Shown here in pieces: positions 5,909 to 50,486 of a DNA stretch of 64,000 nucleotides (positions within the stretch are counted from its first letter, which is position 1; every line of letters starts with the position of its first letter). A model generated the notes under the pieces. The model was given only the letters and a program-made list of their open reading frames with translations, did not search any database and had not been told where the DNA came from. Source of the stretch: a virus (lineage: Duplodnaviria > Heunggongvirae > Uroviricota > Caudoviricetes); IMG/VR virus record IMGVR_UViG_2675903313_000009. The stretch is one strand, 5' to 3'. The translations under genes were made by a program, and so were the position numbers.

Positions 5909-6283
5909 ATGGGACTTGATATCTATATCGAGACACAGCCTAAAAACGATCTGAATAACGAGGCATCCAGAAAGCAGGTTGCTTACTTCCGTAAGTTCAA
6001 TGCGCTCGTTGGGTGGATGGAGCGCAACGTAGGTGAAGTCGAAAATTGTGAGCTTTTAGAATTAACGATGAATGACATTTGTTTTCTGAAGGCTCATTTG
6101 ATGCACATAAACGAAAGTAATTGCGAAGAGTACTTGCCTACCCGGGAAGGTTTTTTCTTCGGCAGTCAGGAGTACGATGAAGGTTACTGGCATGATGTGG
6201 GGCAGTTGAAAGAGCTTGTGGAAGATCTGATTAAGAACCACGACTTTCACAATAACAGACTGACCTTCTGCGCCTGGTGGTAA
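5909..6283 (+). CDS. Hypothetical acidic protein
   Basis: ORF with TAAGGAAA RBS; start chosen at ATG 5909 rather than upstream GTG. Confidence 0.5.
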   Translation: MGLDIYIETQPKNDLNNEASRKQVAYFRKFNALVGWMERNVGEVENCELLELTMNDICFLKAHLMHINESNCEEYLPTREGFFFGSQEYDEGYWHDVGQLKELVEDLIKNHDFHNNRLTFCAWW

Positions 6284-6285
6284 AT

Positions 6286-6429
6286 ATGGGCGATTTCAAG
6301 AAACGCCTGAAGGAAAGAGCCGAGATGGTCAGAAAGCAAAACGCCTCTTCTGTCATCAGATACGCAAGGCAGTTTAGTCGCAACAACAAATCAGTTGAGG
6401 AAAAGATCCTTAGCGTAATCGGTCGATAA
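6286..6429 (+). CDS. Possible small basic protein (47 aa), translationally coupled
   Basis: ATG 3 nt after upstream stop; below ORF-track size cutoff. Confidence 0.3.
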   Translation: MGDFKKRLKERAEMVRKQNASSVIRYARQFSRNNKSVEEKILSVIGR

Positions 6430-6633: not shown

Positions 6634-7116
6634 ATGAATTTTATCGCTACTGTAAACGCACCCGCACATGGCAATATCGCTGTAACGTTCTCTGACATTG
6701 AAAAACGAGTACTTGGTGCATGGCGCGACAATGAGACGGTAGAACTGTCAGCACAAGAAAAATGCATTATTGCACGCGACATCATTGGCAATCGTCGTTA
6801 CTCGCGGGTATTTGAGAAAGCGTATGTGGTAAATTCTGGATTCGGAACGTTCGTCTTTCCGGTGCGCTCCGGGCGATTCTGCCAGTCCAAGCTGATTGAG
6901 TTCGCTACGCAGATTTCTGTCTGGATTAAAACTCAATCGTCGTTCAAATTTTCCGACGATGAAGCAGTATCGCAGGGGATGCGGATCGCCAACAATGCGA
7001 TTAAATGCAAAAACATTACGTATACCGCTGGCGTTGATACATGGAAACTGTTTTGCGCTAACTTTATGCTGAATGTATACGCAAGCAACCGCATCCACAT
7101 CCTTGATGGCGTGTAA
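6634..7116 (+). CDS. Hypothetical protein
   Basis: 160-aa ORF with TAAGGAA RBS. Confidence 0.55.
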   Translation: MNFIATVNAPAHGNIAVTFSDIEKRVLGAWRDNETVELSAQEKCIIARDIIGNRRYSRVFEKAYVVNSGFGTFVFPVRSGRFCQSKLIEFATQISVWIKTQSSFKFSDDEAVSQGMRIANNAIKCKNITYTAGVDTWKLFCANFMLNVYASNRIHILDGV

Positions 7117-7124
7117 CTGAGAAG

Positions 7125-7147
7125 AGGGCCAGAAACGGCCCTTTCTC
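7125..7147 (+). terminator. Hairpin terminator after 6634..7116
   Basis: Stem agggcc/ggccct then TTCTCT. Confidence 0.5.
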
Positions 7148-7255
7148 TATAGCCACCAGCTGCCGCAGGGAAATTTTCAGAAACGGCGAGGAACGTATTC
7201 ATGAGCCGACGGGGAACGGCCAGGATTTTTTCGGGAAACGGCTGCATTCGCCTTT
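7128..7255. repeat. Direct-repeat array B: about 4 units with core G(G)AAACGGC
   Basis: cagaaacggcc / cagaaacggcg / ggggaacggcc / gggaaacggctg; same core as array A. Confidence 0.55.
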
Positions 7256-7660
7256 GTGTAGAAAAAACATCGGGAAGCTGGTGGAATCCAACCAGCGGTT
7301 GTCGGACAGGTGAGCGGGGAAAATTATGATGACTTTCGTCACCTGAGACATCCAGATTTCTTTCGTGGCATAATCACATACGTGATTAAGTGGTGTGATT
7401 ATGTGAAAAATCACGCGCACATAATACGCGAGCGGATACAGAACAAAACAAAATGCCGATCCGCACCGACAAATAAACGCGGATCACATAGCAAGACTAA
7501 AAGCCAATGATTAACCATACTCTATAGCGCAATATAACGCGTTTTAAGCGCGTTAATGTGTTAAGTAATGGGCATGTACTGGTAAGGATATAAAAGCGCG
7601 TCTATGGCGTTATTTTGGCGCTTATTTTTATGTTGTTGGAGTGAGTTAAAGACAATAAAA

Positions 7661-7680
7661 ACGCGCCATCATTGGCGCGT
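7661..7680. promoter_or_regulatory. GC-core palindrome acgcgcca..tggcgcgt
   Basis: 20-bp inverted repeat in AT-rich intergenic region. Confidence 0.3.
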
Positions 7681-7707
7681 TATGGTGGGAGTATTGGAAA
7701 CGAAAAA

Positions 7708-7726
7708 AGCGCCCATAGTGGGCGCT
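7708..7726 (-). terminator. 19-bp palindrome agcgcccatagtgggcgct with flanking A/T runs (copy 1); likely bidirectional terminator
   Basis: Perfect inverted repeat directly downstream of minus-strand gene 7732..7962. Confidence 0.55.
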
Positions 7727-7731
7727 CGATT

Positions 7732-7962
7732 TTATTTGTGTAAACTGATTTTAAATCCCATTTCTACAAACGCTTTTAGCATTAAAAATATATCAGCGTC
7801 GTTCACGTCTGCTTTTTTTCGCTCCTGGTCGCTCAATAAGTCAATTTTGTGCGTCGTTTCATCTATAAGCTCGACTGCGCGCCCAGCGTAACCAGCGATC
7901 CCAGCGATGCGATTAACATAATATTCATTATGGACGTTAACGCCAGCGATAAGAACAAACAT
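7732..7962 (-). CDS. Hypothetical small protein
   Basis: 76-aa ORF in AT-rich minus-strand block. Confidence 0.4.
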   Translation of the reverse strand: MFVLIAGVNVHNEYYVNRIAGIAGYAGRAVELIDETTHKIDLLSDQERKKADVNDADIFLMLKAFVEMGFKISLHK

Positions 7963-7983
7963 GATTAAGCTCCTTAAAAAAAA

Positions 7984-8187
7984 TTAAATAGAATTTTGAA
8001 GTTTTCCGATTAATGCGCTTAAACGTAAGTATTCACGTTTGCGCTTGCAATCTCGCTTGCTGTTAAGCAAATCAGAAAACGTAAAATTTAATTGGTCGCG
8101 TTGCGCGATTAAATCATCGATTAATTCCAGTTTATAAGCGCGATACTTTGCGCGATATTCCGCGCGGATCTTGTCATAGCTGACCAT
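7984..8187 (-). CDS. Hypothetical small basic protein
   Basis: ORF with GGAG RBS before ATG at 8187; Lys/Arg-rich. Confidence 0.4.
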   Translation of the reverse strand: MVSYDKIRAEYRAKYRAYKLELIDDLIAQRDQLNFTFSDLLNSKRDCKRKREYLRLSALIGKLQNSI

Positions 8188-8204
8188 TTTTAAAGCTCCT
8201 TTAA

Positions 8205-8223
8205 AGCGCCCATAGTGGGCGCT
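8205..8223. promoter_or_regulatory. 19-bp palindrome agcgcccatagtgggcgct (copy 2)
   Basis: Identical to 7708..7726; lies between two minus-strand genes. Confidence 0.4.
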
Positions 8224-8235
8224 TGATTCCATTAA

Positions 8236-8895
8236 TTACGCTTTGAAAGCATCAGCTAAATAATTGTAGAAATCATTTTTAATGAAGCGATATTGCTGAG
8301 TACCAGCTTTCGCGCTCCCAGCTCCTTTGACTTTTTCAACAAGTCCAAGACGTTCGCAAAGATTGATCAACTGGTTGGCTTGAGTATAGCCAGCGTCCAA
8401 TTTAATTTCACACGCTTTTTTAGCTTCATTCATTAAATCGAAAACAGCGCCATTGGTGAACGTGTCGATCTCGTCGTTAATCATATCGATTAAAGCGAAT
8501 ACACGAGATCCTGACATATCAGCGATGGAATAAACGCATTTACCAGATTTAATTGATTTAACCAGATAAACCAGTTTTTCCAGAGAATAACTATTAGTCA
8601 TTGCATCACGGAAAAATACTTCTGGCGCTTGTTTGCTTGCTTTAATCGCATAGTAGAAAACAGAGCATAATTTTTCGTCTTCTACAGCGTTTACAACGTT
8701 GTTGATGAAGTAAGCAAGTTTCGTGGTCGCAGCTTGCATATTTGCTTTGTCTGTTTTAGTGTGCGTACCATTTTTATAATGTTCGTTATATGTTTGAGTC
8801 GCCAGATCTGCTTTTTCGCGCAGCTCGTCGGATACAATAGATGCAGCTTCAATGATGGACTTTTTAGAAATGATAACGTTAGCCATGATGGACAT
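8236..8895 (-). CDS. Hypothetical protein
   Basis: 219-aa ORF, AT-rich. Confidence 0.55.
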   Translation of the reverse strand: MSIMANVIISKKSIIEAASIVSDELREKADLATQTYNEHYKNGTHTKTDKANMQAATTKLAYFINNVVNAVEDEKLCSVFYYAIKASKQAPEVFFRDAMTNSYSLEKLVYLVKSIKSGKCVYSIADMSGSRVFALIDMINDEIDTFTNGAVFDLMNEAKKACEIKLDAGYTQANQLINLCERLGLVEKVKGAGSAKAGTQQYRFIKNDFYNYLADAFKA

Positions 8896-11864: not shown

Positions 11865-13424
11865 CTAATCTCGTTTCAGAACTCCAAAATCGAATGTGCC
11901 ATCAATTGGCAATACACCTTCTGCAAAGCCAGGTGTGGTGTCGATGATGTGTTTTCGCTCATAAGAGTGAGACAACAGGTATTTGTTGCTAATGTCAATG
12001 AAATCAGTGATAAAACACACGTTTGCCTGATTTTTTTTTGCTCGTAAGCCACGACCGACACGCTGTCTCATTTCAACTTCTGCTTTCCCACCACCAGCAA
12101 GAATGACCGCGCCCACGCTTGGCACATCAACACCGACATCCAGAATAGTCGAGCCTATTAAAACATCTATTTCGCCAGACGCTAAACTGTTCAGCTTTGC
12201 TTGCCTTGTCGCCTGGTTCGATTCCCCATAAATGAAGTCAACTCTAAGGCCGGACTCCTTCATCATCTCCATCAGGATTTGCCCGTGGCGTTTAAGACGA
12301 ACCAGAGTCATACAATTGAGAGAATGTTGCTTATAGAGCAATGCTTCGCGCACAATGGCCTCGTTACGTCCCAAATTATACACGATCCCCAACTGATAAG
12401 CCTTTTGGTAGGCAGTGCTCATACCAACTCTAAAATTGAGGTGTTTGTTGGCAAGTTCGGCCTTGATTCTGGCCTCGTCTGGCTTGTAGGCAACTTTATG
12501 ATAAAGGAAGTACGGCTTTGCCAGAATGCCTCGATCAATCAGGTACTTTTCTGTGACTTTAATTTCAATTCGCCCGGCCACCGCCATCAGGCGCATGTTG
12601 GCTTCCGTCGAATCCTTCATGAACGGCGTGGCTGTAAGCGCCAGACGATAGTCTGCGTTCACACATAATCTGGCAATGTCATAGAAATTAGAGCCTGAAG
12701 ACTCATGCGCTTCTTCCAGAATAAGCAGAGACACACTTGAAAGGAAGCGTTTCACTAGCTCCCGACGTTTGAGGTGGTAGCTCTTTTTATCTGGTGTTGC
12801 ATCGCGTGGTGGTTCTTCAAGGAAACTTGCCAGAGTTTGAACTGTAGCGACGTTGATATGTCGTGATACCTGGAACTCACCCGAGCCAATGACTCCAACC
12901 TTTTGGCCCTTTAACCACGGTTCGCCATTTTCGGCGCGGTAGTCGATGGATCTCTGGAAGTTTTCGGCCATTTGAAACATCAGAACAGAGCGGGTTGTTA
13001 AAAATAATGTCATTCGACCGATACGTGCAGCTGCTTTGCAGGCAACATTAGATTTCCCGCCACCAGTAGCGATCTGCGCAATCATCATTCCCTCTCGAAC
13101 CAGTGTTTCCACAGTCTGATCCTGATACGCATAATCAGGATTGTATGGGAATGGGTTAACCGCTGGATTTGGTTTTCCAAGCGCCGGGGCTTTGTCTTTG
13201 CGGATATGAACACATTTGATGCCCGCCTTGTTCAAGTTCGCCGCTACAGGCTTGGCAAAGCCAGCAGGGAACGAGTTTTTACTCCAGTTGAACATTGTGC
13301 TTGTGCCCTTCCAGTCGCCAGTCTCGACTTCGTAGCTCAACATCTGTTGCACCATTTGCTTTACCTTGTCATCTGCGCCAGAAATAAGCGCATTAACTGC
13401 GTTAGATACAATCCGAACAGTCAT
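11865..13424 (-). CDS. Superfamily-2 (DEAD/DEAH-like) helicase
   Basis: Walker A ATGGGKS, DEAH-like LILEEAH, motif III LTATP. Confidence 0.8.
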   Translation of the reverse strand: MTVRIVSNAVNALISGADDKVKQMVQQMLSYEVETGDWKGTSTMFNWSKNSFPAGFAKPVAANLNKAGIKCVHIRKDKAPALGKPNPAVNPFPYNPDYAYQDQTVETLVREGMMIAQIATGGGKSNVACKAAARIGRMTLFLTTRSVLMFQMAENFQRSIDYRAENGEPWLKGQKVGVIGSGEFQVSRHINVATVQTLASFLEEPPRDATPDKKSYHLKRRELVKRFLSSVSLLILEEAHESSGSNFYDIARLCVNADYRLALTATPFMKDSTEANMRLMAVAGRIEIKVTEKYLIDRGILAKPYFLYHKVAYKPDEARIKAELANKHLNFRVGMSTAYQKAYQLGIVYNLGRNEAIVREALLYKQHSLNCMTLVRLKRHGQILMEMMKESGLRVDFIYGESNQATRQAKLNSLASGEIDVLIGSTILDVGVDVPSVGAVILAGGGKAEVEMRQRVGRGLRAKKNQANVCFITDFIDISNKYLLSHSYERKHIIDTTPGFAEGVLPIDGTFDFGVLKRD

Positions 13425-13470
13425 AAACCTCTTTCCTTAGTGCCTTTTGTATGTTATTTGGCTATTATAA

Positions 13471-13489
13471 TAAGTAAGTGATTACTTAG
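13471..13489. promoter_or_regulatory. Palindromic TAAGTA..TACTTA motif copy in divergent promoter region
   Basis: taagtaagtgattacttag. Confidence 0.4.
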
Positions 13490-14187
13490 TGGATTGTAGC
13501 AATAAAATGGATGTAAAAATCACGATTTTGCAGGTTGATGTTGCCAACCTTCGCCCGAATACCTGGAACACCAATTCGGTTGGTGCGCAGAATTTTGAAA
13601 AACTGAAAGGTTCTATCGAAAAATTGGGCTTTTTTAAGCCAATTTTGGCTCGTGAACTTGAAGATGGATTTTTTGAAATCCTCGGCGGCGAACATCGCTG
13701 GCGTGCTGCTATTGAGCAAGGAATTTCAACGGTTCCAGTGCTTTCTGTGGGCAAAATTAGCGATGTCGTAGCTAAACAGATGTCACTGGTGGACAACGAG
13801 CGATACGGTGAAGACGACCAAATCGCATTGCAACGCTTCATTGAAGAAATTCAGTCAGAACTTGACTATCAACTGTCTGAAATCGCCCCGTATGACGACG
13901 AAATCTCGATGGTTTTAGCAAAAGAGGCGGCAATCGACCTTGAAGCACTGGAGGCGTTGTCTCGTGGTAGTGATGAGCCTGTCGATACCGACAAACGAGA
14001 GAAAACCGAACGTGTGGGTGCGGAACATCAGACCATGCGCTTCAAAGTAACTTTCGATGCGTCAGATCGTGTTGCAGAAACCATAAAAAACATCATCAAA
14101 GAGCAGGATATTAACACCGGTAATGAAATGGAGAACGCTGGTGAGGCTCTGGTGTGGCTGGTCGACTACTACAAGGAGCGTATGTAA
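13489..14187 (+). CDS. ParB N-terminal-domain (ParB/Srx-like) protein
   Basis: GGEHRWRAA resembles ParB box II; start codon uncertain (GTG 13489 or ATG 13507). Confidence 0.7.
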   Translation: MDCSNKMDVKITILQVDVANLRPNTWNTNSVGAQNFEKLKGSIEKLGFFKPILARELEDGFFEILGGEHRWRAAIEQGISTVPVLSVGKISDVVAKQMSLVDNERYGEDDQIALQRFIEEIQSELDYQLSEIAPYDDEISMVLAKEAAIDLEALEALSRGSDEPVDTDKREKTERVGAEHQTMRFKVTFDASDRVAETIKNIIKEQDINTGNEMENAGEALVWLVDYYKERM

Positions 14188-14855
14188 TGACCAAAAAGTT
14201 TGAAATCGTATATCGCGACCCGGCAGATCTTATTCCCTATGAGATGAATGCCAAAAAGCATGATGAACAGCAGATCCGAGATCTAGCCGCAGCCATTAAA
14301 AAGCGCGGATTTGACCAGCCAATTACGGTCGATAAGAACGACGTAATTATTACTGGCCACGGCCGCCGTGAGGCTGCAATTTTTGCTGGACTTGAGCGCG
14401 TACCGGTTATTGTTCGCGATGATCTTAGTGATGACGAGGTTCGTGCGAAGCGCCTTGAAGATAACCGACTTGCCAGCATTGATTACGATGCAATTAAGCT
14501 ACAGAAAGAGCTTGAGTCGCTTGTTCTGGACGATATCGAGGTTTTCGGCTTTGAAGAGCGTGAGTTGAATGTTCTCGTTGGCAGCATGACAGAAGAAATG
14601 GACACCGACTCGCTAGTTATCGATCTTGGCGAAGAAACTAAACGACAGAAGGATGAACACACCGAGATCAGTCGTGAAGTTGCAGCGGAAGAAGTACGTG
14701 TTGTCGACGTATTGGGCTTTAAAACGCTTCCTGCTGGCTCTGCCATTGTTGTTGGTGATTTGCTTGCCCACATGGAAGAAATGACGGGAGAAAGCGGGGT
14801 AGACGCATTTGTGGCATATGCGGAGAAGATCTCTTCCGGGGAGATGGCTGCATGA
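14187..14855 (+). CDS. Second ParB N-terminal-domain protein
   Basis: GHGRREAA motif; start overlaps upstream stop (TAATG). Confidence 0.7.
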   Translation: MTKKFEIVYRDPADLIPYEMNAKKHDEQQIRDLAAAIKKRGFDQPITVDKNDVIITGHGRREAAIFAGLERVPVIVRDDLSDDEVRAKRLEDNRLASIDYDAIKLQKELESLVLDDIEVFGFEERELNVLVGSMTEEMDTDSLVIDLGEETKRQKDEHTEISREVAAEEVRVVDVLGFKTLPAGSAIVVGDLLAHMEEMTGESGVDAFVAYAEKISSGEMAA

Positions 14856-15517
14856 GCAAATACATCATCAACGTATCGTTTCAGACACGCGTAAATAAAA
14901 CCACGCGCACGTTGGAAATCGCTGAGTCGTTCGGGCTTGGCCTGGACGAAAAAGAGTGGACGCTTTACGACAATCTGGAGCTGGATGTGAAGCAGGGCGA
15001 TGTGGTGTACATCACCGGCCAATCCGGTTCCGGCAAATCCGTTGTGCTGCGCGAGTTGCAACGACAGATGAAGGATGAAGGGCTGTCTGTAGCCTCCATC
15101 GATGATTTTACCTTCGATAATGAGGTTAACGTCATCGATCAGTTGGGCAAAACGACCAGTGATGCGCTTGGGTTGTTATCTATGGCTGGTCTGAACGATG
15201 CATATCTGTTTGTTCGCAAGCCTTCTGAAATGTCAGACGGCCAGAAATATCGTCTCAAGATTGCCAAACTGATTGAGTCAGGCGCTAAAGTATGGGCTGC
15301 TGACGAGTTCGGCGCTGTTCTCGACCGTGTAACCGCTCAGGTTGTGGCGTCTAACCTCCAGCGTGCCGCTCGAAAGGTTGGTGCGACGGTAATGGTGGCG
15401 ACGACTCACGAAGACCTGAAGAACGCGCTGCGCCCGGATATGCAGATCACCAAGCACTACAAAGAACGCGTGAAGGTGGAATATCACAATGGTAGTCATG
15501 ATGAGGTCCATTCATGA
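14852..15517 (+). CDS. Stand-alone ABC-type ATPase
   Basis: Walker A GQSGSGKS, signature-like SDGQ, Walker B AADEFGAVLD, H-loop ATTHE. Confidence 0.7.
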   Translation: MSKYIINVSFQTRVNKTTRTLEIAESFGLGLDEKEWTLYDNLELDVKQGDVVYITGQSGSGKSVVLRELQRQMKDEGLSVASIDDFTFDNEVNVIDQLGKTTSDALGLLSMAGLNDAYLFVRKPSEMSDGQKYRLKIAKLIESGAKVWAADEFGAVLDRVTAQVVASNLQRAARKVGATVMVATTHEDLKNALRPDMQITKHYKERVKVEYHNGSHDEVHS

Positions 15518-16404
15518 CGGACATCATCATTAAACGCTACCGCCCTGAAGAGTTTCCGCGTCATCTGGACTTTCTGGAGCGAATGACTGTTACAAAGGGA
15601 ACTGTAGAGGACTGGCACGCTCTTAAGTCGCTTCACTACAAAACAGACGGCAAACCTTTCGCGCCAACTTACTATCGCTGCGAACTTGATGACCGTCTGG
15701 TGGGCGTCGTGGTTATGGCTTACCCGAAACTACTGTTGGCACCTCGCCACCGCATGTTTCCTAAGTTGAAACCAACCACTAATACCACCGTGGCTAACCA
15801 GTACTGGGGTCGGTACGTGAATAACAACTTTGCGGTGATCAGTCGCTCAGTTGTGGATACTCAGTATCGTGGCGTAGGCGTCTCTTATCGAATGATTAAC
15901 CTGGTTAGCAGGATGCATGACCGGCCAATCATTGAGATCCAGTCCTCGATGAGCAAATACAATCCCTTCGCCATGAAAGCAGGGTTTAAGTTCATCCGCC
16001 CTGAGCGACCGAAGAGCTATGAAAGTGCACTGCGTGTATTCCAGCGCCATTTCCGTTCCGACCCTGGTGATAACGAGGCGATCGTCAAAGAGTTGTTCGC
16101 AATGAGCGAGTCTCGTCGTCGCCGTGCACTGCGTGATCTGGTGGCGGACTACCACAAGAACAGTTCCCTGGCAAAAGCTGGGCGGAATCGTGGCACGACG
16201 ATTCAGGACATTGCCGACAGTCTGGTGGACGAGGCCAGCATTGTGAAGCTGCTCAAGGACATTCACAACCTGAGCTTTACGTCTCCGTTGTATGGTGTGT
16301 ACCGAAACCCTGACTTTGGTCGTCGACTGCCTGACACGCTGCCACTGCTGGCATTCGACAAACAACCTTTGGATAAACCGTTAGAAATTGCTTTACCGGC
16401 ATAA
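15514..16404 (+). CDS. Hypothetical protein with possible GNAT acyltransferase core
   Basis: YRGVGVS resembles GNAT motif A (R-x-x-G-x-G/A); C-terminal 150 aa unassigned. Confidence 0.45.
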   Translation: MTDIIIKRYRPEEFPRHLDFLERMTVTKGTVEDWHALKSLHYKTDGKPFAPTYYRCELDDRLVGVVVMAYPKLLLAPRHRMFPKLKPTTNTTVANQYWGRYVNNNFAVISRSVVDTQYRGVGVSYRMINLVSRMHDRPIIEIQSSMSKYNPFAMKAGFKFIRPERPKSYESALRVFQRHFRSDPGDNEAIVKELFAMSESRRRRALRDLVADYHKNSSLAKAGRNRGTTIQDIADSLVDEASIVKLLKDIHNLSFTSPLYGVYRNPDFGRRLPDTLPLLAFDKQPLDKPLEIALPA

Positions 16405-16413
16405 GGATTTGCC

Positions 16414-16680
16414 ATGACGTTAACCGACAAACAAAAGGACATCATCAAAACGCTCAATCTCGGTTATGAGCGAGGTCATCTACTTGATCTGGACGAATTG
16501 CTTGAAGTTTTGCCGTACAAGACAACAAAGCAAAGTATCCAGTTCTCAATTCGCGCTCTGATAAAAAAGGGGCTGGTGGAGAAAGGGCATACGCGCCAAC
16601 GCAGTGACAATCGCTATCACCGCCGGACTCTTGGGTTAACCACTTTAGGTCGAGCCAAAGCGAAGTTACTGGTGATGTAA
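16414..16680 (+). CDS. Small putative DNA-binding (winged-helix-like) protein
   Basis: 88-aa basic ORF with helix-turn-helix-like segment. Confidence 0.4.
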   Translation: MTLTDKQKDIIKTLNLGYERGHLLDLDELLEVLPYKTTKQSIQFSIRALIKKGLVEKGHTRQRSDNRYHRRTLGLTTLGRAKAKLLVM

Positions 16681-16704: not shown

Positions 16705-16761
16705 CCTGCTTCTGTATATATAAATAATAAGTAACTTATTAAATATATATACGGAAGCAGG
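16705..16761. repeat. 57-bp AT-rich near-palindrome with GC clamps (copy 1)
   Basis: cctgcttc..gaagcagg arms around AT-rich palindromic core; second copy at 50433. Confidence 0.7.
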
Positions 16762-16796: not shown

Positions 16797-16815
16797 AGAA
16801 AACAAGTTGGTTAGC
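16797..16815 (+). promoter_or_regulatory. Early operator motif copy (degenerate)
   Basis: cagaaaacaagttggttagc. Confidence 0.4.
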
Positions 16816-16832
16816 AGATGCAGTAAACAAGT

Positions 16833-16850
16833 TGTTTTAGAGCGCATGGA
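16833..16850 (+). promoter_or_regulatory. Early operator motif copy upstream of terminase small subunit
   Basis: gtaaacaagttgttttag. Confidence 0.45.
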
Positions 16851-16877
16851 CGCGCTCTGTGTGTTTTAGAGGGATCT

Positions 16878-47377: not shown

Positions 47378-48046
47378 ATGACCAAGATCTTTGTGGTTGG
47401 CGGCACAAAGGGCGGGCCTGGCAAATCCACCGTTGCCCAGCAAATTGCCGTTTGCCTGAAAGTCAAAAAGAAGAAGAAGGTTTATATTACCGATATAGAT
47501 ATTCAGCGCACGACAACGAGCTGGTGTGAAGACCGTCGACAGAACGAAGACCTTGAGCTGATTCCTTTTGCATACGTTCAGGATGACATCATTAAGCACC
47601 TAAAATCGCTTCAGGGTAGAGCTGAGTTTGTAGTGGTAGATGCTGGTGGCTTCGACTCCGAAATTCAGCGACAAGCGATGCTGATGGCTGACGTTATCAT
47701 TATCCCGCTGCGTCCTAAGCGTCGTGATTTGAAATCTTTACGTGACATCGATCCTATTATCGACAATGTTCGCAATGTAAACGATAAAGTGAAGGTCCGC
47801 GCGGTCATGAACCAGTGCCCGGCTTTGCCATCACAAGTGTCTCGCATTCTGGCGGCTAAAGAGATTGTTGAGACGTTTGGCATCGAGTCTGCGCCAGTCA
47901 ATCTATATAACCGCAACGTCTATGATGATGCGGAAGAGTCTGGTCGTTCTATCTTTGAAATGACCGGTAGCGAGCGCGACAAAAAGGCGGAAGCCGAGTT
48001 TGAAGAATTTGTAGATTATCTGTTGAGTCTGGAGGAAGAAGAATAA
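47378..48046 (+). CDS. parA: ParA/MinD-family partition ATPase
   Basis: Deviant Walker A GGTKGGPGKST; 222 aa. Confidence 0.85.
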   Translation: MTKIFVVGGTKGGPGKSTVAQQIAVCLKVKKKKKVYITDIDIQRTTTSWCEDRRQNEDLELIPFAYVQDDIIKHLKSLQGRAEFVVVDAGGFDSEIQRQAMLMADVIIIPLRPKRRDLKSLRDIDPIIDNVRNVNDKVKVRAVMNQCPALPSQVSRILAAKEIVETFGIESAPVNLYNRNVYDDAEESGRSIFEMTGSERDKKAEAEFEEFVDYLLSLEEEE

Positions 48047-48405
48047 TGTCCATGAAAATGGGTGACCTAGCAAAGCGCAAAGAGCCTGATGCACCGGCTA
48101 AGAACACAACTCCTTTGCGCCAACCAGTCAGACCACAGGGACGCCCGACTCGTGGCAAAGAGAAAATTAAAAGCCGCACAATGTCACTGGAGGACGAATA
48201 CTTCGAACTGCTGGAGATGATGAAGTTCATCCCTCGCTTCGAGAAGTTCACTCGTTCTGACGTGATTCGTGCTGCTATTTTCCATCTTGCGGAGAAGACA
48301 CCGCAGGAAATCGAGGACATCGTGAAACTTAACGAGGCGATCACAGCTGCCGATGTCACGATGCGTACCGATGAAATCAAACGCGAGTTGATGAAGAAAG
48401 GTTAA
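48046..48405 (+). CDS. Small partition partner (ParG/ParB-like centromere-binding candidate)
   Basis: 119-aa basic protein coupled to parA (ATGTCC overlapping stop). Confidence 0.5.
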   Translation: MSMKMGDLAKRKEPDAPAKNTTPLRQPVRPQGRPTRGKEKIKSRTMSLEDEYFELLEMMKFIPRFEKFTRSDVIRAAIFHLAEKTPQEIEDIVKLNEAITAADVTMRTDEIKRELMKKG

Positions 48406-50432: not shown

Positions 50433-50486
50433 CCTGCTTCTGTATATAAATACTAAGTTACTTATTATTATTTATACGGAAGCAGG
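50433..50486. repeat. 54-bp AT-rich near-palindrome with GC clamps (copy 2)
   Basis: About 85% identical to 16705..16761; followed by TCTTTTT. Confidence 0.7.

Follow-up and report, generated by a model that had tools for sequence, protein, structure and literature searches.

The stretch of DNA analysed in this study (the window, 64,000 nucleotides) is IMG/VR virus record IMGVR_UViG_2675903313_000009, a member of the Caudoviricetes, and the system in question is a four-gene cluster close to its terminase genes that encodes two ParB-like proteins, a stand-alone ATP-binding cassette (ABC)-type ATPase and a GNAT-fold acyltransferase (Table 1). The original prediction, made from the letters of the window, had placed four genes with overlapping stops and starts on one strand, directly upstream of the terminase, and had proposed that their products work together in a DNA-targeting or DNA-modifying role rather than in partition. 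Judged by its sequence relationships, the cluster is the SSU5-lineage, split-gene and ParB-duplicated form of a widespread viral module composed of ParB, ABC ATPase and GNAT proteins.

Gene content of the cluster

All four open reading frames (ORFs) were confirmed on the + strand of the window, with overlaps of 1, 4 and 4 nucleotides (nt) at the three junctions (TAATG, ATGA and ATGA) and a Shine-Dalgarno-like motif before each of them, in agreement with the predicted layout. The position directly upstream of the terminase holds in part, as the terminase genes are close by, but a gene for a small winged helix-turn-helix (wHTH) protein of 88 amino acids (aa) and a 197-bp intergenic region intervene before the gene of the small terminase subunit (TerS), which is followed by those of the large subunit (TerL) and the portal protein. 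A GTG codon at 14154 that appears in the ORF list is probably not the start of ParB2. The wHTH protein shows weak matches to Sta1/Lrs14 wHTH proteins. In most related loci its gene immediately follows the GNAT gene, and it probably belongs to the cluster operon; the protein itself may serve as a DNA-targeting subunit or as a regulator.

Escherichia phage Cyrano, an SSU5-like phage-plasmid of E. coli LF82, matches the region at 99% identity, and Salmonella phage SSU5 at 86%. Among plasmid records, 757 contain this 2.9-kb stretch; their hosts are Klebsiella, Escherichia, Enterobacter, Yersinia and Salmonella.

Table 1. Positions in the window of the cluster genes, their neighbours and other features discussed in the text.
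Feature	Position	Strand	Description	Family or domain
UvsW-like helicase	11865..13424	-	superfamily 2 (SF2) helicase, divergent from the cluster
11-mer ATAATAAGTAA, upstream of ParB1	13467..13477		exact copy
ParB1	13507..14187	+	ATG start, 226 aa; alternative GTG start at 13489 (chosen in the original prediction)	ParB/Srx N-domain
ParB2	14187..14855	+	ATG start, 222 aa	ParB/Srx N-domain
Stand-alone ABC-type ATPase	14852..15517	+	221 aa	ABC_tran and catalytic motifs
GNAT-fold acyltransferase	15514..16404	+	296 aa, isoelectric point (pI) 9.8
wHTH protein	16414..16680	+	88 aa, small, basic	phrog_900 (E 1.9e-45)
Palindrome	16705..16761		57 bp, AT-rich, near-perfect; 28-nt arms, 89% complementary
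11-mer ATAATAAGTAA, in the palindrome	16724..16734		exact copy
AAACAAGTTG repeats and hairpin	16799..16859		terminator-like hairpin at 16838..16859
TerS	from 16878
TerL	from 17510
ParA	47378..48046			MipZ/ParA P-loop (E 7e-14)
119-aa gene	48046..48405		CYRAN_29 by position
11-mer ATAATAAGTAA, third copy	50458..50468	-	exact copy

The two ParB-like proteins are paralogues, as had been proposed, with 33% identity over 116 aa (E 5e-10), and both carry the motifs from which they were first recognised (GGEHRWRAA and GHGRREAA). ParB1 matches Pfam ParB_N (E 3.4e-13) and phrog_723 (E 1.6e-79), aligns to Spo0J/ParB/Noc N-domains in the PDB (best E 2.8e-9) and contains the motif ILGGEHRWRAA, with GGxHR..A and DNxRYGxDD invariant across 22 orthologues. 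ParB2 matches ParB_N (E 1.5e-8) and phrog_930 (E 1e-112) and contains TGHGRREAA, with GHGR..A likewise invariant across 22 orthologues. ParB2 is also the closest relative of the ParB component in other phage triads and in ParB–methyltransferase fusions, as evidenced by matches to the ParB–methyltransferase family phrog_498 (E 5e-32) and to the N-terminus of PADLOC MTase_II (E 2.7e-17). With lengths of 222–226 aa, both proteins consist of an N-domain only, an acidic linker and a conserved C-terminal segment. They are acidic (pI 4.5), with a net charge of -7 to -9 per 30 residues at the position of the helix-turn-helix (HTH) of canonical ParB proteins, and neither HTH_ParB nor any other HTH family was detected in either of them with Pfam at E <= 0.01, a sequence-level result that is compatible with a degenerate helical remnant.

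The third gene does encode a minimal ABC-type ATPase, matching Pfam ABC_tran (E 4.5e-13) and possessing all catalytic motifs; Walker A (GQSGSGKS), the signature (MSDGQ), Walker B (VWAADEF) and the H-loop (TTHE) are conserved in 23 orthologues. The 296-aa product of the fourth gene has no family match in Pfam, NCBIfam or PADLOC, and the GNAT-like motif noticed in it earlier is upheld by conservation of motif A (RGVGVS, in which R119 and G122 are invariant) and motif B (NPFAxKAGF), and by homology to the C-terminal GNAT domain of ABC–GNAT fusion proteins, with the acyl-CoA (coenzyme A) binding motif present. The last two strands of its secondary structure lie at residues 259–264 and 275–277; if, as we infer, these complete the GNAT sheet, residues ~160–255 (~90 aa) would form a basic helical insert between alpha4 and beta6-7. 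Searches of PDB sequences with the protein alone and with a 47-sequence profile returned chance-level matches only (AlkD and a coiled coil), and at the sequence level the protein does not fall within the Mom clade.

Conservation of the cluster and fusion of its partners

A first scan of viral contigs recovered near-identical SSU5-type loci only, and a word-based homologue search with the ABC protein yielded, among the matches listed, only proteins of at least 85% identity. The wider diversity described here comes from a scan of GTDB (one genome per species), from tblastn against phage genomes and from an exhaustive search of representatives. The GTDB scan revealed 23 loci in Gamma-, Beta- and Alphaproteobacteria, many of them on contigs of ~100–118 kb, and in all 22 with enough flanking sequence the order was a helicase gene on the opposite strand, followed by ParB1, ParB2, ABC, GNAT, wHTH, TerS, TerL and portal genes. 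The same gene order is found in Pseudomonas phage nickie and in Rhizobium phages, and the UvsW-like helicase is syntenic in every related locus. Such an arrangement is far from what chance would give, and the cluster is an ancient core module of this phage lineage. The cluster is also carried by ~110-kb siphophages isolated as free virions, namely Pseudomonas phages nickie, Nican01 and phiK7B1, Rhizobium phages RHEph10 and RHph_N1_15, and phages of Stenotrophomonas and Xanthomonas; one free-virion siphophage record with the cluster has a ParA-like gene as well.

Compared with the window proteins, orthologues of the ABC ATPase reach a median identity of 55%, those of the GNAT protein 41% and those of the ParBs 38–39%, against 59% for TerL, 48% for the portal protein and 31% for TerS, such that the ABC ATPase is the most conserved of the cluster genes and comparable to TerL. 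Tight translational coupling is restricted to the enterobacterial branch, and more distant relatives carry 0–1 kb of small inserted genes at the cluster junctions.

In relatives, insertions are concentrated at two hot spots, the ParB2/ABC and ABC/GNAT junctions, which hold 0–1039 bp (as at 6961–7999 of locus L003). Rhizobium phages carry a Tad2-like anti-Thoeris gene at a cluster junction (6043–6345 of locus L109, from RHph_N1_15; Pfam E 1e-23), Phage_gp49_66 and RyR-domain genes are found in an Ectothiorhodospira element, and SSU5 carries an additional 84-aa ORF (7994–8248 of locus L002) that is absent in the window.

Beyond this lineage, tblastn with the window ABC protein matched 72 phage records, in which the neighbourhoods were read by annotation and Pfam scans; in phages of six host genera the triad of ParB, ABC and GNAT recurs upstream of terminase. 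In Leptospira phage LE4, a ParB_N gene precedes an ABC–GNAT fusion (366 aa) and TerL, whilst in Gordonia phage Axumite the order is a ParB-like gene, ABC–GNAT (401 aa), a formyltransferase and terminase. Rhodococcus phage Jace has ParB_N and ABC–GNAT followed by aspartate decarboxylase PanD (E 2e-33) and a fragment of a CoA-transferase III, and Arthrobacter phage EastWest has ParB_N followed by ABC–GNAT. The components are listed singly in Oenococcus phage unk162 (ParB_N, ABC, GNAT and ASCH) and in Lactococcus phage P335 (ParB_N, ABC, GNAT, an unknown gene and TerS). A ParB/Srx N-domain thus stands upstream in each of these six other phage lineages, as one gene, and in the window, as two. Hidden Markov models (HMMs) built from the SSU5 lineage recognise these components, with the ParB2 model matching Orf23 of Lactococcus P335 (E 3.8e-35), the ParB of the Oenococcus phage matched at 1e-25 and ABC components at 1e-17 to 1e-29, so that the triads are orthologous to the window module and do not merely share domain content with it.

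An exhaustive profile search with the GNAT family recovered 917 proteins. Representatives of at least 330 aa (n = 68) comprise 60 ABC–GNAT fusions, three ABC–GNAT fusions with an intein in the ABC domain, four ParB–ABC–GNAT fusions and one GNAT domain alone, so that an ABC domain is fused to the GNAT domain in 67 of these 68 long homologues; the HMM of the window ABC family matches the N-terminal domains of 67 fusion representatives with E-values of 1e-49 to 1e-77. The N-terminus of one triple fusion (P0313) shares 30% identity with ParB1 (E 3e-6). Other architectures in the GNAT family include an added TFIIB repeat and, in a protein of 1260 aa (P0321), an ABC–GNAT unit fused to a complete family-B DNA polymerase (PolB); a Yasminevirus protein among the viral fold matches has the same length. 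In another ABC–GNAT homologue (P0285, 847 aa), an intein (Hint and LAGLIDADG) lies next to Walker B of the ABC domain.

A search seeded with a single fused protein returned 2098 relatives, with Bathyarchaeia, Nitrososphaeria, Methanocella and Firmicutes among those that are named. In archaeal proviruses the fusion gene comes directly after TerL in all three loci, with a 4-nt overlap in two of them. Desulfofarcimen and Heliorestis prophages have the fusion followed by Amidoligase_2 and a GGACT cyclotransferase, TerL and portal, with TerL 2–3 kb downstream, and in two phage contigs of ~85–98 kb the fusion lies between DnaB/RecJ-like genes and DNA polymerase III (Pol III) alpha. Co-occurrence across phage genomes takes the form of a triad adjacency that recurs across phyla, with the partners fused elsewhere, and the proposal that the proteins work together is supported both by this adjacency and by the ABC–GNAT and ParB–ABC–GNAT fusions. 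The ParB, ABC and GNAT protein types are functionally linked to one another, and linked to the DNA-handling genes of the virus.

The interval between the wHTH gene and TerS in the window contains a palindrome, with AAACAAGTTG repeats and a terminator-like hairpin downstream of it (Table 1). SSU5 and a Y. pestis contig of ~108 kb have the palindrome conserved, and the deposited linear records of both SSU5 and Cyrano terminate 62 nt past the wHTH stop codon, 8–9 nt beyond the palindrome centre. Possible roles of this region are a pac/cos site and a late-promoter operator. The Nican01 record, for which long terminal repeats are reported, was opened arbitrarily at TerL and is uninformative on the genome ends relative to the cluster. 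The 11-mer ATAATAAGTAA has three exact copies in the window, one of them within the palindrome, and five matches with up to one mismatch, compared with 1.2 expected, and might be a phage-specific promoter or regulator site. A simple promoter and terminator scan gave no enrichment over shuffled sequences.

Partition, transport and methylation labels

Database records annotate the cluster proteins inconsistently, as a 'ParB-like partition protein', a 'DNA modification methylase', an 'ABC transporter' or an 'MK0520 protein, ABC-type ATPase fused to a predicted acetyltransferase domain'. The original prediction held that the cluster is not a partition system, and that a true one, ParA with a partner, is encoded separately. 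The separate ParA is confirmed, 33 kb from the cluster, and is accompanied by a 119-aa gene that overlaps its stop codon and whose product has no family match. Its positional counterpart in Cyrano, CYRAN_29, is annotated as a 'RelE/ParE putative toxin' and is expressed in the lysogen. The centromere-binding partner of the type Ib ParA is a likelier identity for the 119-aa product than a toxin.

In RNA-seq data from the LF82 lysogen (PMC9928086, table S1), CYRAN_119–122 have values of 5.0, 9.5, 9.2 and 8.0, with a background median of 9.8 and values of 7–8 for the terminase genes. The cluster therefore reads at background in the lysogen, and is off in the plasmid state. The divergent helicase in the same lysogen reads 46 and the small gene CYRAN_117 reads 114, compared with the background of 9.8 (PMC9928086).

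In support of a second partition system, or of an ABC transporter or auxiliary metabolic gene, there are the annotations themselves ('ParB-like partition protein' and 'ABC transporter ATP-binding subunit'). The ParBs do possess the N-domain with the GxxRxxA nucleotide-binding motif that is expected of the ParB of a ParABS system. They lack the central HTH of such a protein, as well as an adjacent ParA and expression in the plasmid state: a helicase gene borders the cluster on one side and no ParA is adjacent, and the cluster is silent in the Cyrano plasmid-prophage, whereas the ParA-adjacent CYRAN_29 is expressed. The ParBs are acidic N-domain-only proteins, the neighbourhood holds no permease gene, and the cluster or its relatives are present in free-virion phages, integrated prophages and archaeal proviruses. 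Partition or transport is already contradicted by these observations and can hardly be the function, so that the earlier exclusion of partition stands.

An ABC transporter was rejected, as the operon encodes ParB, GNAT and wHTH proteins only beside the ATPase, and the fusion partner is GNAT, not a permease, in 67 of the 68 long homologues. A DNA methylase was rejected as well, with no methyltransferase domain present; the 'DNA methyltransferase/methylase' labels of ParB2 orthologues are carry-overs, as is the '296-aa ABC subunit' label, which derives from fused ABC–GNAT proteins. Misleading names of these three kinds ('partition protein', 'ABC transporter' and 'DNA methylase'), which have spread through hundreds of records, are corrected by this analysis.

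Proposed DNA acylation and its alternatives

That such proteins act on DNA by acylation is not a new idea, as it has already been predicted for the ABC–GNAT family: in the account given by Iyer et al. 2021 (PMC7824862), which cites Iyer et al. 2013, ABC-ATPase–GNAT proteins are predicted to acylate a DNA nucleobase, with Tenacibaculum phage pT24 as an example. The window ABC protein matches the pT24 gene (tblastn E 4e-11, HMM E 5e-25). Each domain of the COG2401 'MK0520' ABC–GNAT proteins has its homologue in the window ABC or GNAT protein, and the source databases name both halves COG2401; in the window, however, the domains are separate coupled genes with two ParB paralogues ahead of them in an SSU5-type phage-plasmid, and the function of the COG2401 family is itself a prediction. 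No functional or experimental study of the module was found in the literature, nor any earlier report that SSU5-type phage-plasmids carry it, that its ParB is duplicated or that it is coupled to TerL in archaeal proviruses, in a survey that did not cover the full text of Iyer et al. 2013.

A precedent for the ParB proteins is the pair 5mYOX176/ParB176, in which a phage ParB without a DNA-binding domain is required by a thymine dioxygenase, specifically on double-stranded DNA (O'Toole et al., PNAS 2026, PMC13229309). That short ParB has a nucleotide-binding N-domain and a C-terminal part but no obvious DNA-binding domain, and is encoded next to a post-replicative DNA-modifying enzyme, in clusters that often lie near terminases; the architecture of the window ParBs is consistent with such a protein. 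The commonest neighbours of phage dioxygenase pathways include ParBs (27%) and terminases (19%) (PMC13229309). The partner in the window is, by contrast, an ABC ATPase with a GNAT protein and not an iron/2-oxoglutarate dioxygenase, and there are two ParB paralogues, not one. ParB–DNA methyltransferase fusions of phages and plasmids also tie a ParB N-domain to a DNA-modifying activity, and ParB2 is closest to their ParB domain, but the window cluster has no methyltransferase domain. A bacterial ParB–acetyltransferase fusion that binds GTP has also been described (Kaljevic et al. 2025, PMC12704722).

In the Dnd system, DndB belongs to the ParB family and DndD is an ABC ATPase (PMC10853773); with DndC/A/E also present, the system shares the three-part logic of ParB-superfamily protein, ABC ATPase and modifying enzyme. 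It differs in the coiled-coil insert of DndD and in its chemistry, which places sulphur in the backbone and is not acyl transfer, and PADLOC gave no match of the cluster proteins to DndB, DndC or DndD, with only a weak partial match to DndF (E 0.0027). For the GNAT protein, there are GNAT-fold enzymes that act on bases in polymer DNA, namely Mom of phage Mu, described as a DNA adenine N6-methylcarbamoyl transferase (PMC7261163), and PaMx11 gp48, which acetylates 5-aminomethyl-deoxyuridine in DNA (PMC8989533). Neither shares sequence similarity with the window GNAT protein, both work without an ABC ATPase or ParB, and the window protein has the 90-aa basic helical insert. NAT10 is cited in PMC8989533 as a precedent for nucleic-acid acetyltransferases. 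TmcA/NAT10, an ATP-dependent RNA cytidine N4-acetyltransferase, resembles the window system in coupling an NTPase to a GNAT domain and acetylating a nucleobase in structured nucleic acid, but has a helicase-like ATPase, an RNA substrate and no ParB, with homology limited to the GNAT fold.

Because of these precedents and the genes that neighbour the module, the reading that we favour is that it puts an acyl mark on the phage's own DNA, by analogy with known systems, and our confidence in this is evenly divided. The original proposal of a DNA-targeting or DNA-modifying role agrees with the contexts observed (terminase linkage, PolB fusion, Pol III alpha adjacency, genes of acyl and amine chemistry, and ASCH), and is still a role that we infer from them. 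ASCH is one of the PUA-like readers of modified bases, and the E. coli ASCH protein YqfB hydrolyses N4-acetylcytidine.

During lytic growth, a timing suggested by the silence of the cluster in the lysogen, an ABC ATPase dimer and the GNAT protein would form one ATP-dependent acyltransferase. ATP-driven closure of the ABC dimer would open or position double-stranded DNA, and the GNAT protein would then move an acyl group from acyl-CoA to an amine, most likely an exocyclic base amine in phage DNA. ParB1 and ParB2, lacking a DNA-binding HTH, would probably act as a heterodimeric, nucleoside triphosphate (NTP)-gated clamp or activator that holds the enzyme on double-stranded DNA, a role proposed from their likeness to the ParB partners of phage thymine dioxygenases. 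The marked DNA would be packaged, and subsequently protected from host nucleases at the next infection. In other lineages, PanD and CoA-transferase could provide a beta-alanyl-CoA donor, whilst formyltransferase, or amidoligase together with GGACT, could extend or decorate an amine; acyl chemistry that differs in this way from lineage to lineage is the expected product of an arms race over DNA marks.

Several observations weigh against this reading. ParB/Srx domains may also be nucleases or kinases. Restriction enzymes routinely cut the DNA of P335-type phages and many actinobacteriophages, which speaks against bulk hypermodification. No phage that carries the module has been reported to contain a modified base, and the conservation of the module at the level of core genes is unusual for an anti-restriction function. 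ParB1 reads GEHR at the GERR arginine patch, and no neighbouring ParB was detected for the archaeal and Firmicute fusions. The GNAT protein has no sequence-level match to any solved GNAT, resembles Mom at the level of the fold only, and has as its best structural neighbours mostly small-molecule and protein N-acetyltransferases. Close coupling to TerL would fit a role in packaging or chromatin clearing equally well.

Such a role, in which a ParB-guided ABC–GNAT enzyme acetylates DNA-bound proteins (of the host nucleoid, the terminase or the portal) and strips or regulates them for the packaging of concatemers, would explain why the module adjoins terminase genes in bacteria and is translationally coupled to TerL in archaeal proviruses, as well as its core-gene-level conservation, and the hosts of all carrier viruses do have lysine-rich chromatin proteins. 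We nevertheless regard it as unlikely, as the variable neighbours (PanD with CoA-transferase, formyltransferase, amidoligase with GGACT, and ASCH) are hard to fit with simple protein acetylation, and DNA-modification clusters also typically adjoin terminases (PMC13229309).

The target may alternatively lie in the host, with the GNAT protein inactivating tRNA, nucleotides or defence signals and the ParBs acting as NTP-regulated nickases on host DNA. Phage ParB/Srx domains have been proposed as NTP-regulated DNases (PMC5512222), and Rhizobium phages do carry the Tad2-like anti-Thoeris gene within the operon, but strict vertical conservation and a synteny with packaging genes that is fixed across phyla are unlike what is seen for accessory anti-defence genes, and the PolB fusion and TerL coupling point to the virus's own DNA, which makes a takeover or anti-defence enzyme decidedly improbable. 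More doubtful again is a transcriptional switch, in which the ParBs would be KorB/VirB-like NTP-dependent promoter clamps that time the late (terminase and structural) genes together with the wHTH protein. The cluster does lie immediately upstream of the late operon, with the conserved 57-bp palindrome and the terminator-like hairpin between the wHTH gene and TerS, and KorB is a ParB-family clamp and repressor, as cited in PMC13229309; this reading, however, leaves the obligatory ABC ATPase–GNAT partner and the fusions unexplained, and the ParBs are strongly acidic with no detectable HTH, so that we give it very little credence.

If DNA acylation is extended to all carriers of the module, a large and ancient clade of tailed viruses of bacteria and archaea, together with some giant viruses, would write N-acylated bases (such as N4-acyl-deoxycytidine or N6-acyl-deoxyadenosine), a class of DNA mark not seen before, just before packaging by means of an ATP-powered, ParB-loaded GNAT enzyme, with donors that vary between lineages (acetyl, beta-alanyl, formylated or amino-acid-extended), and the clamp of the SSU5 lineage would be an asymmetric ParB1/ParB2 heterodimer. 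This wider proposal is tentative, and in its full form we are inclined to doubt it.

Computational prediction of the system dates from 2013, and the window places the module in a genetically tractable, inducible phage-plasmid of E. coli and Salmonella. Cyrano virions are inducible from E. coli LF82 with ciprofloxacin, and the plasmid form, in which the cluster is silent, offers a built-in unmodified control. The module is carried by phage-plasmids of the SSU5/pHCM2/pMT1 type, which are often found in E. coli, Klebsiella, Salmonella and Yersinia of clinical origin. If true, the proposal would reveal a new enzymatic route to DNA base modification, an ABC ATPase-driven and ParB-guided acylation, across bacterial, archaeal and giant viruses.

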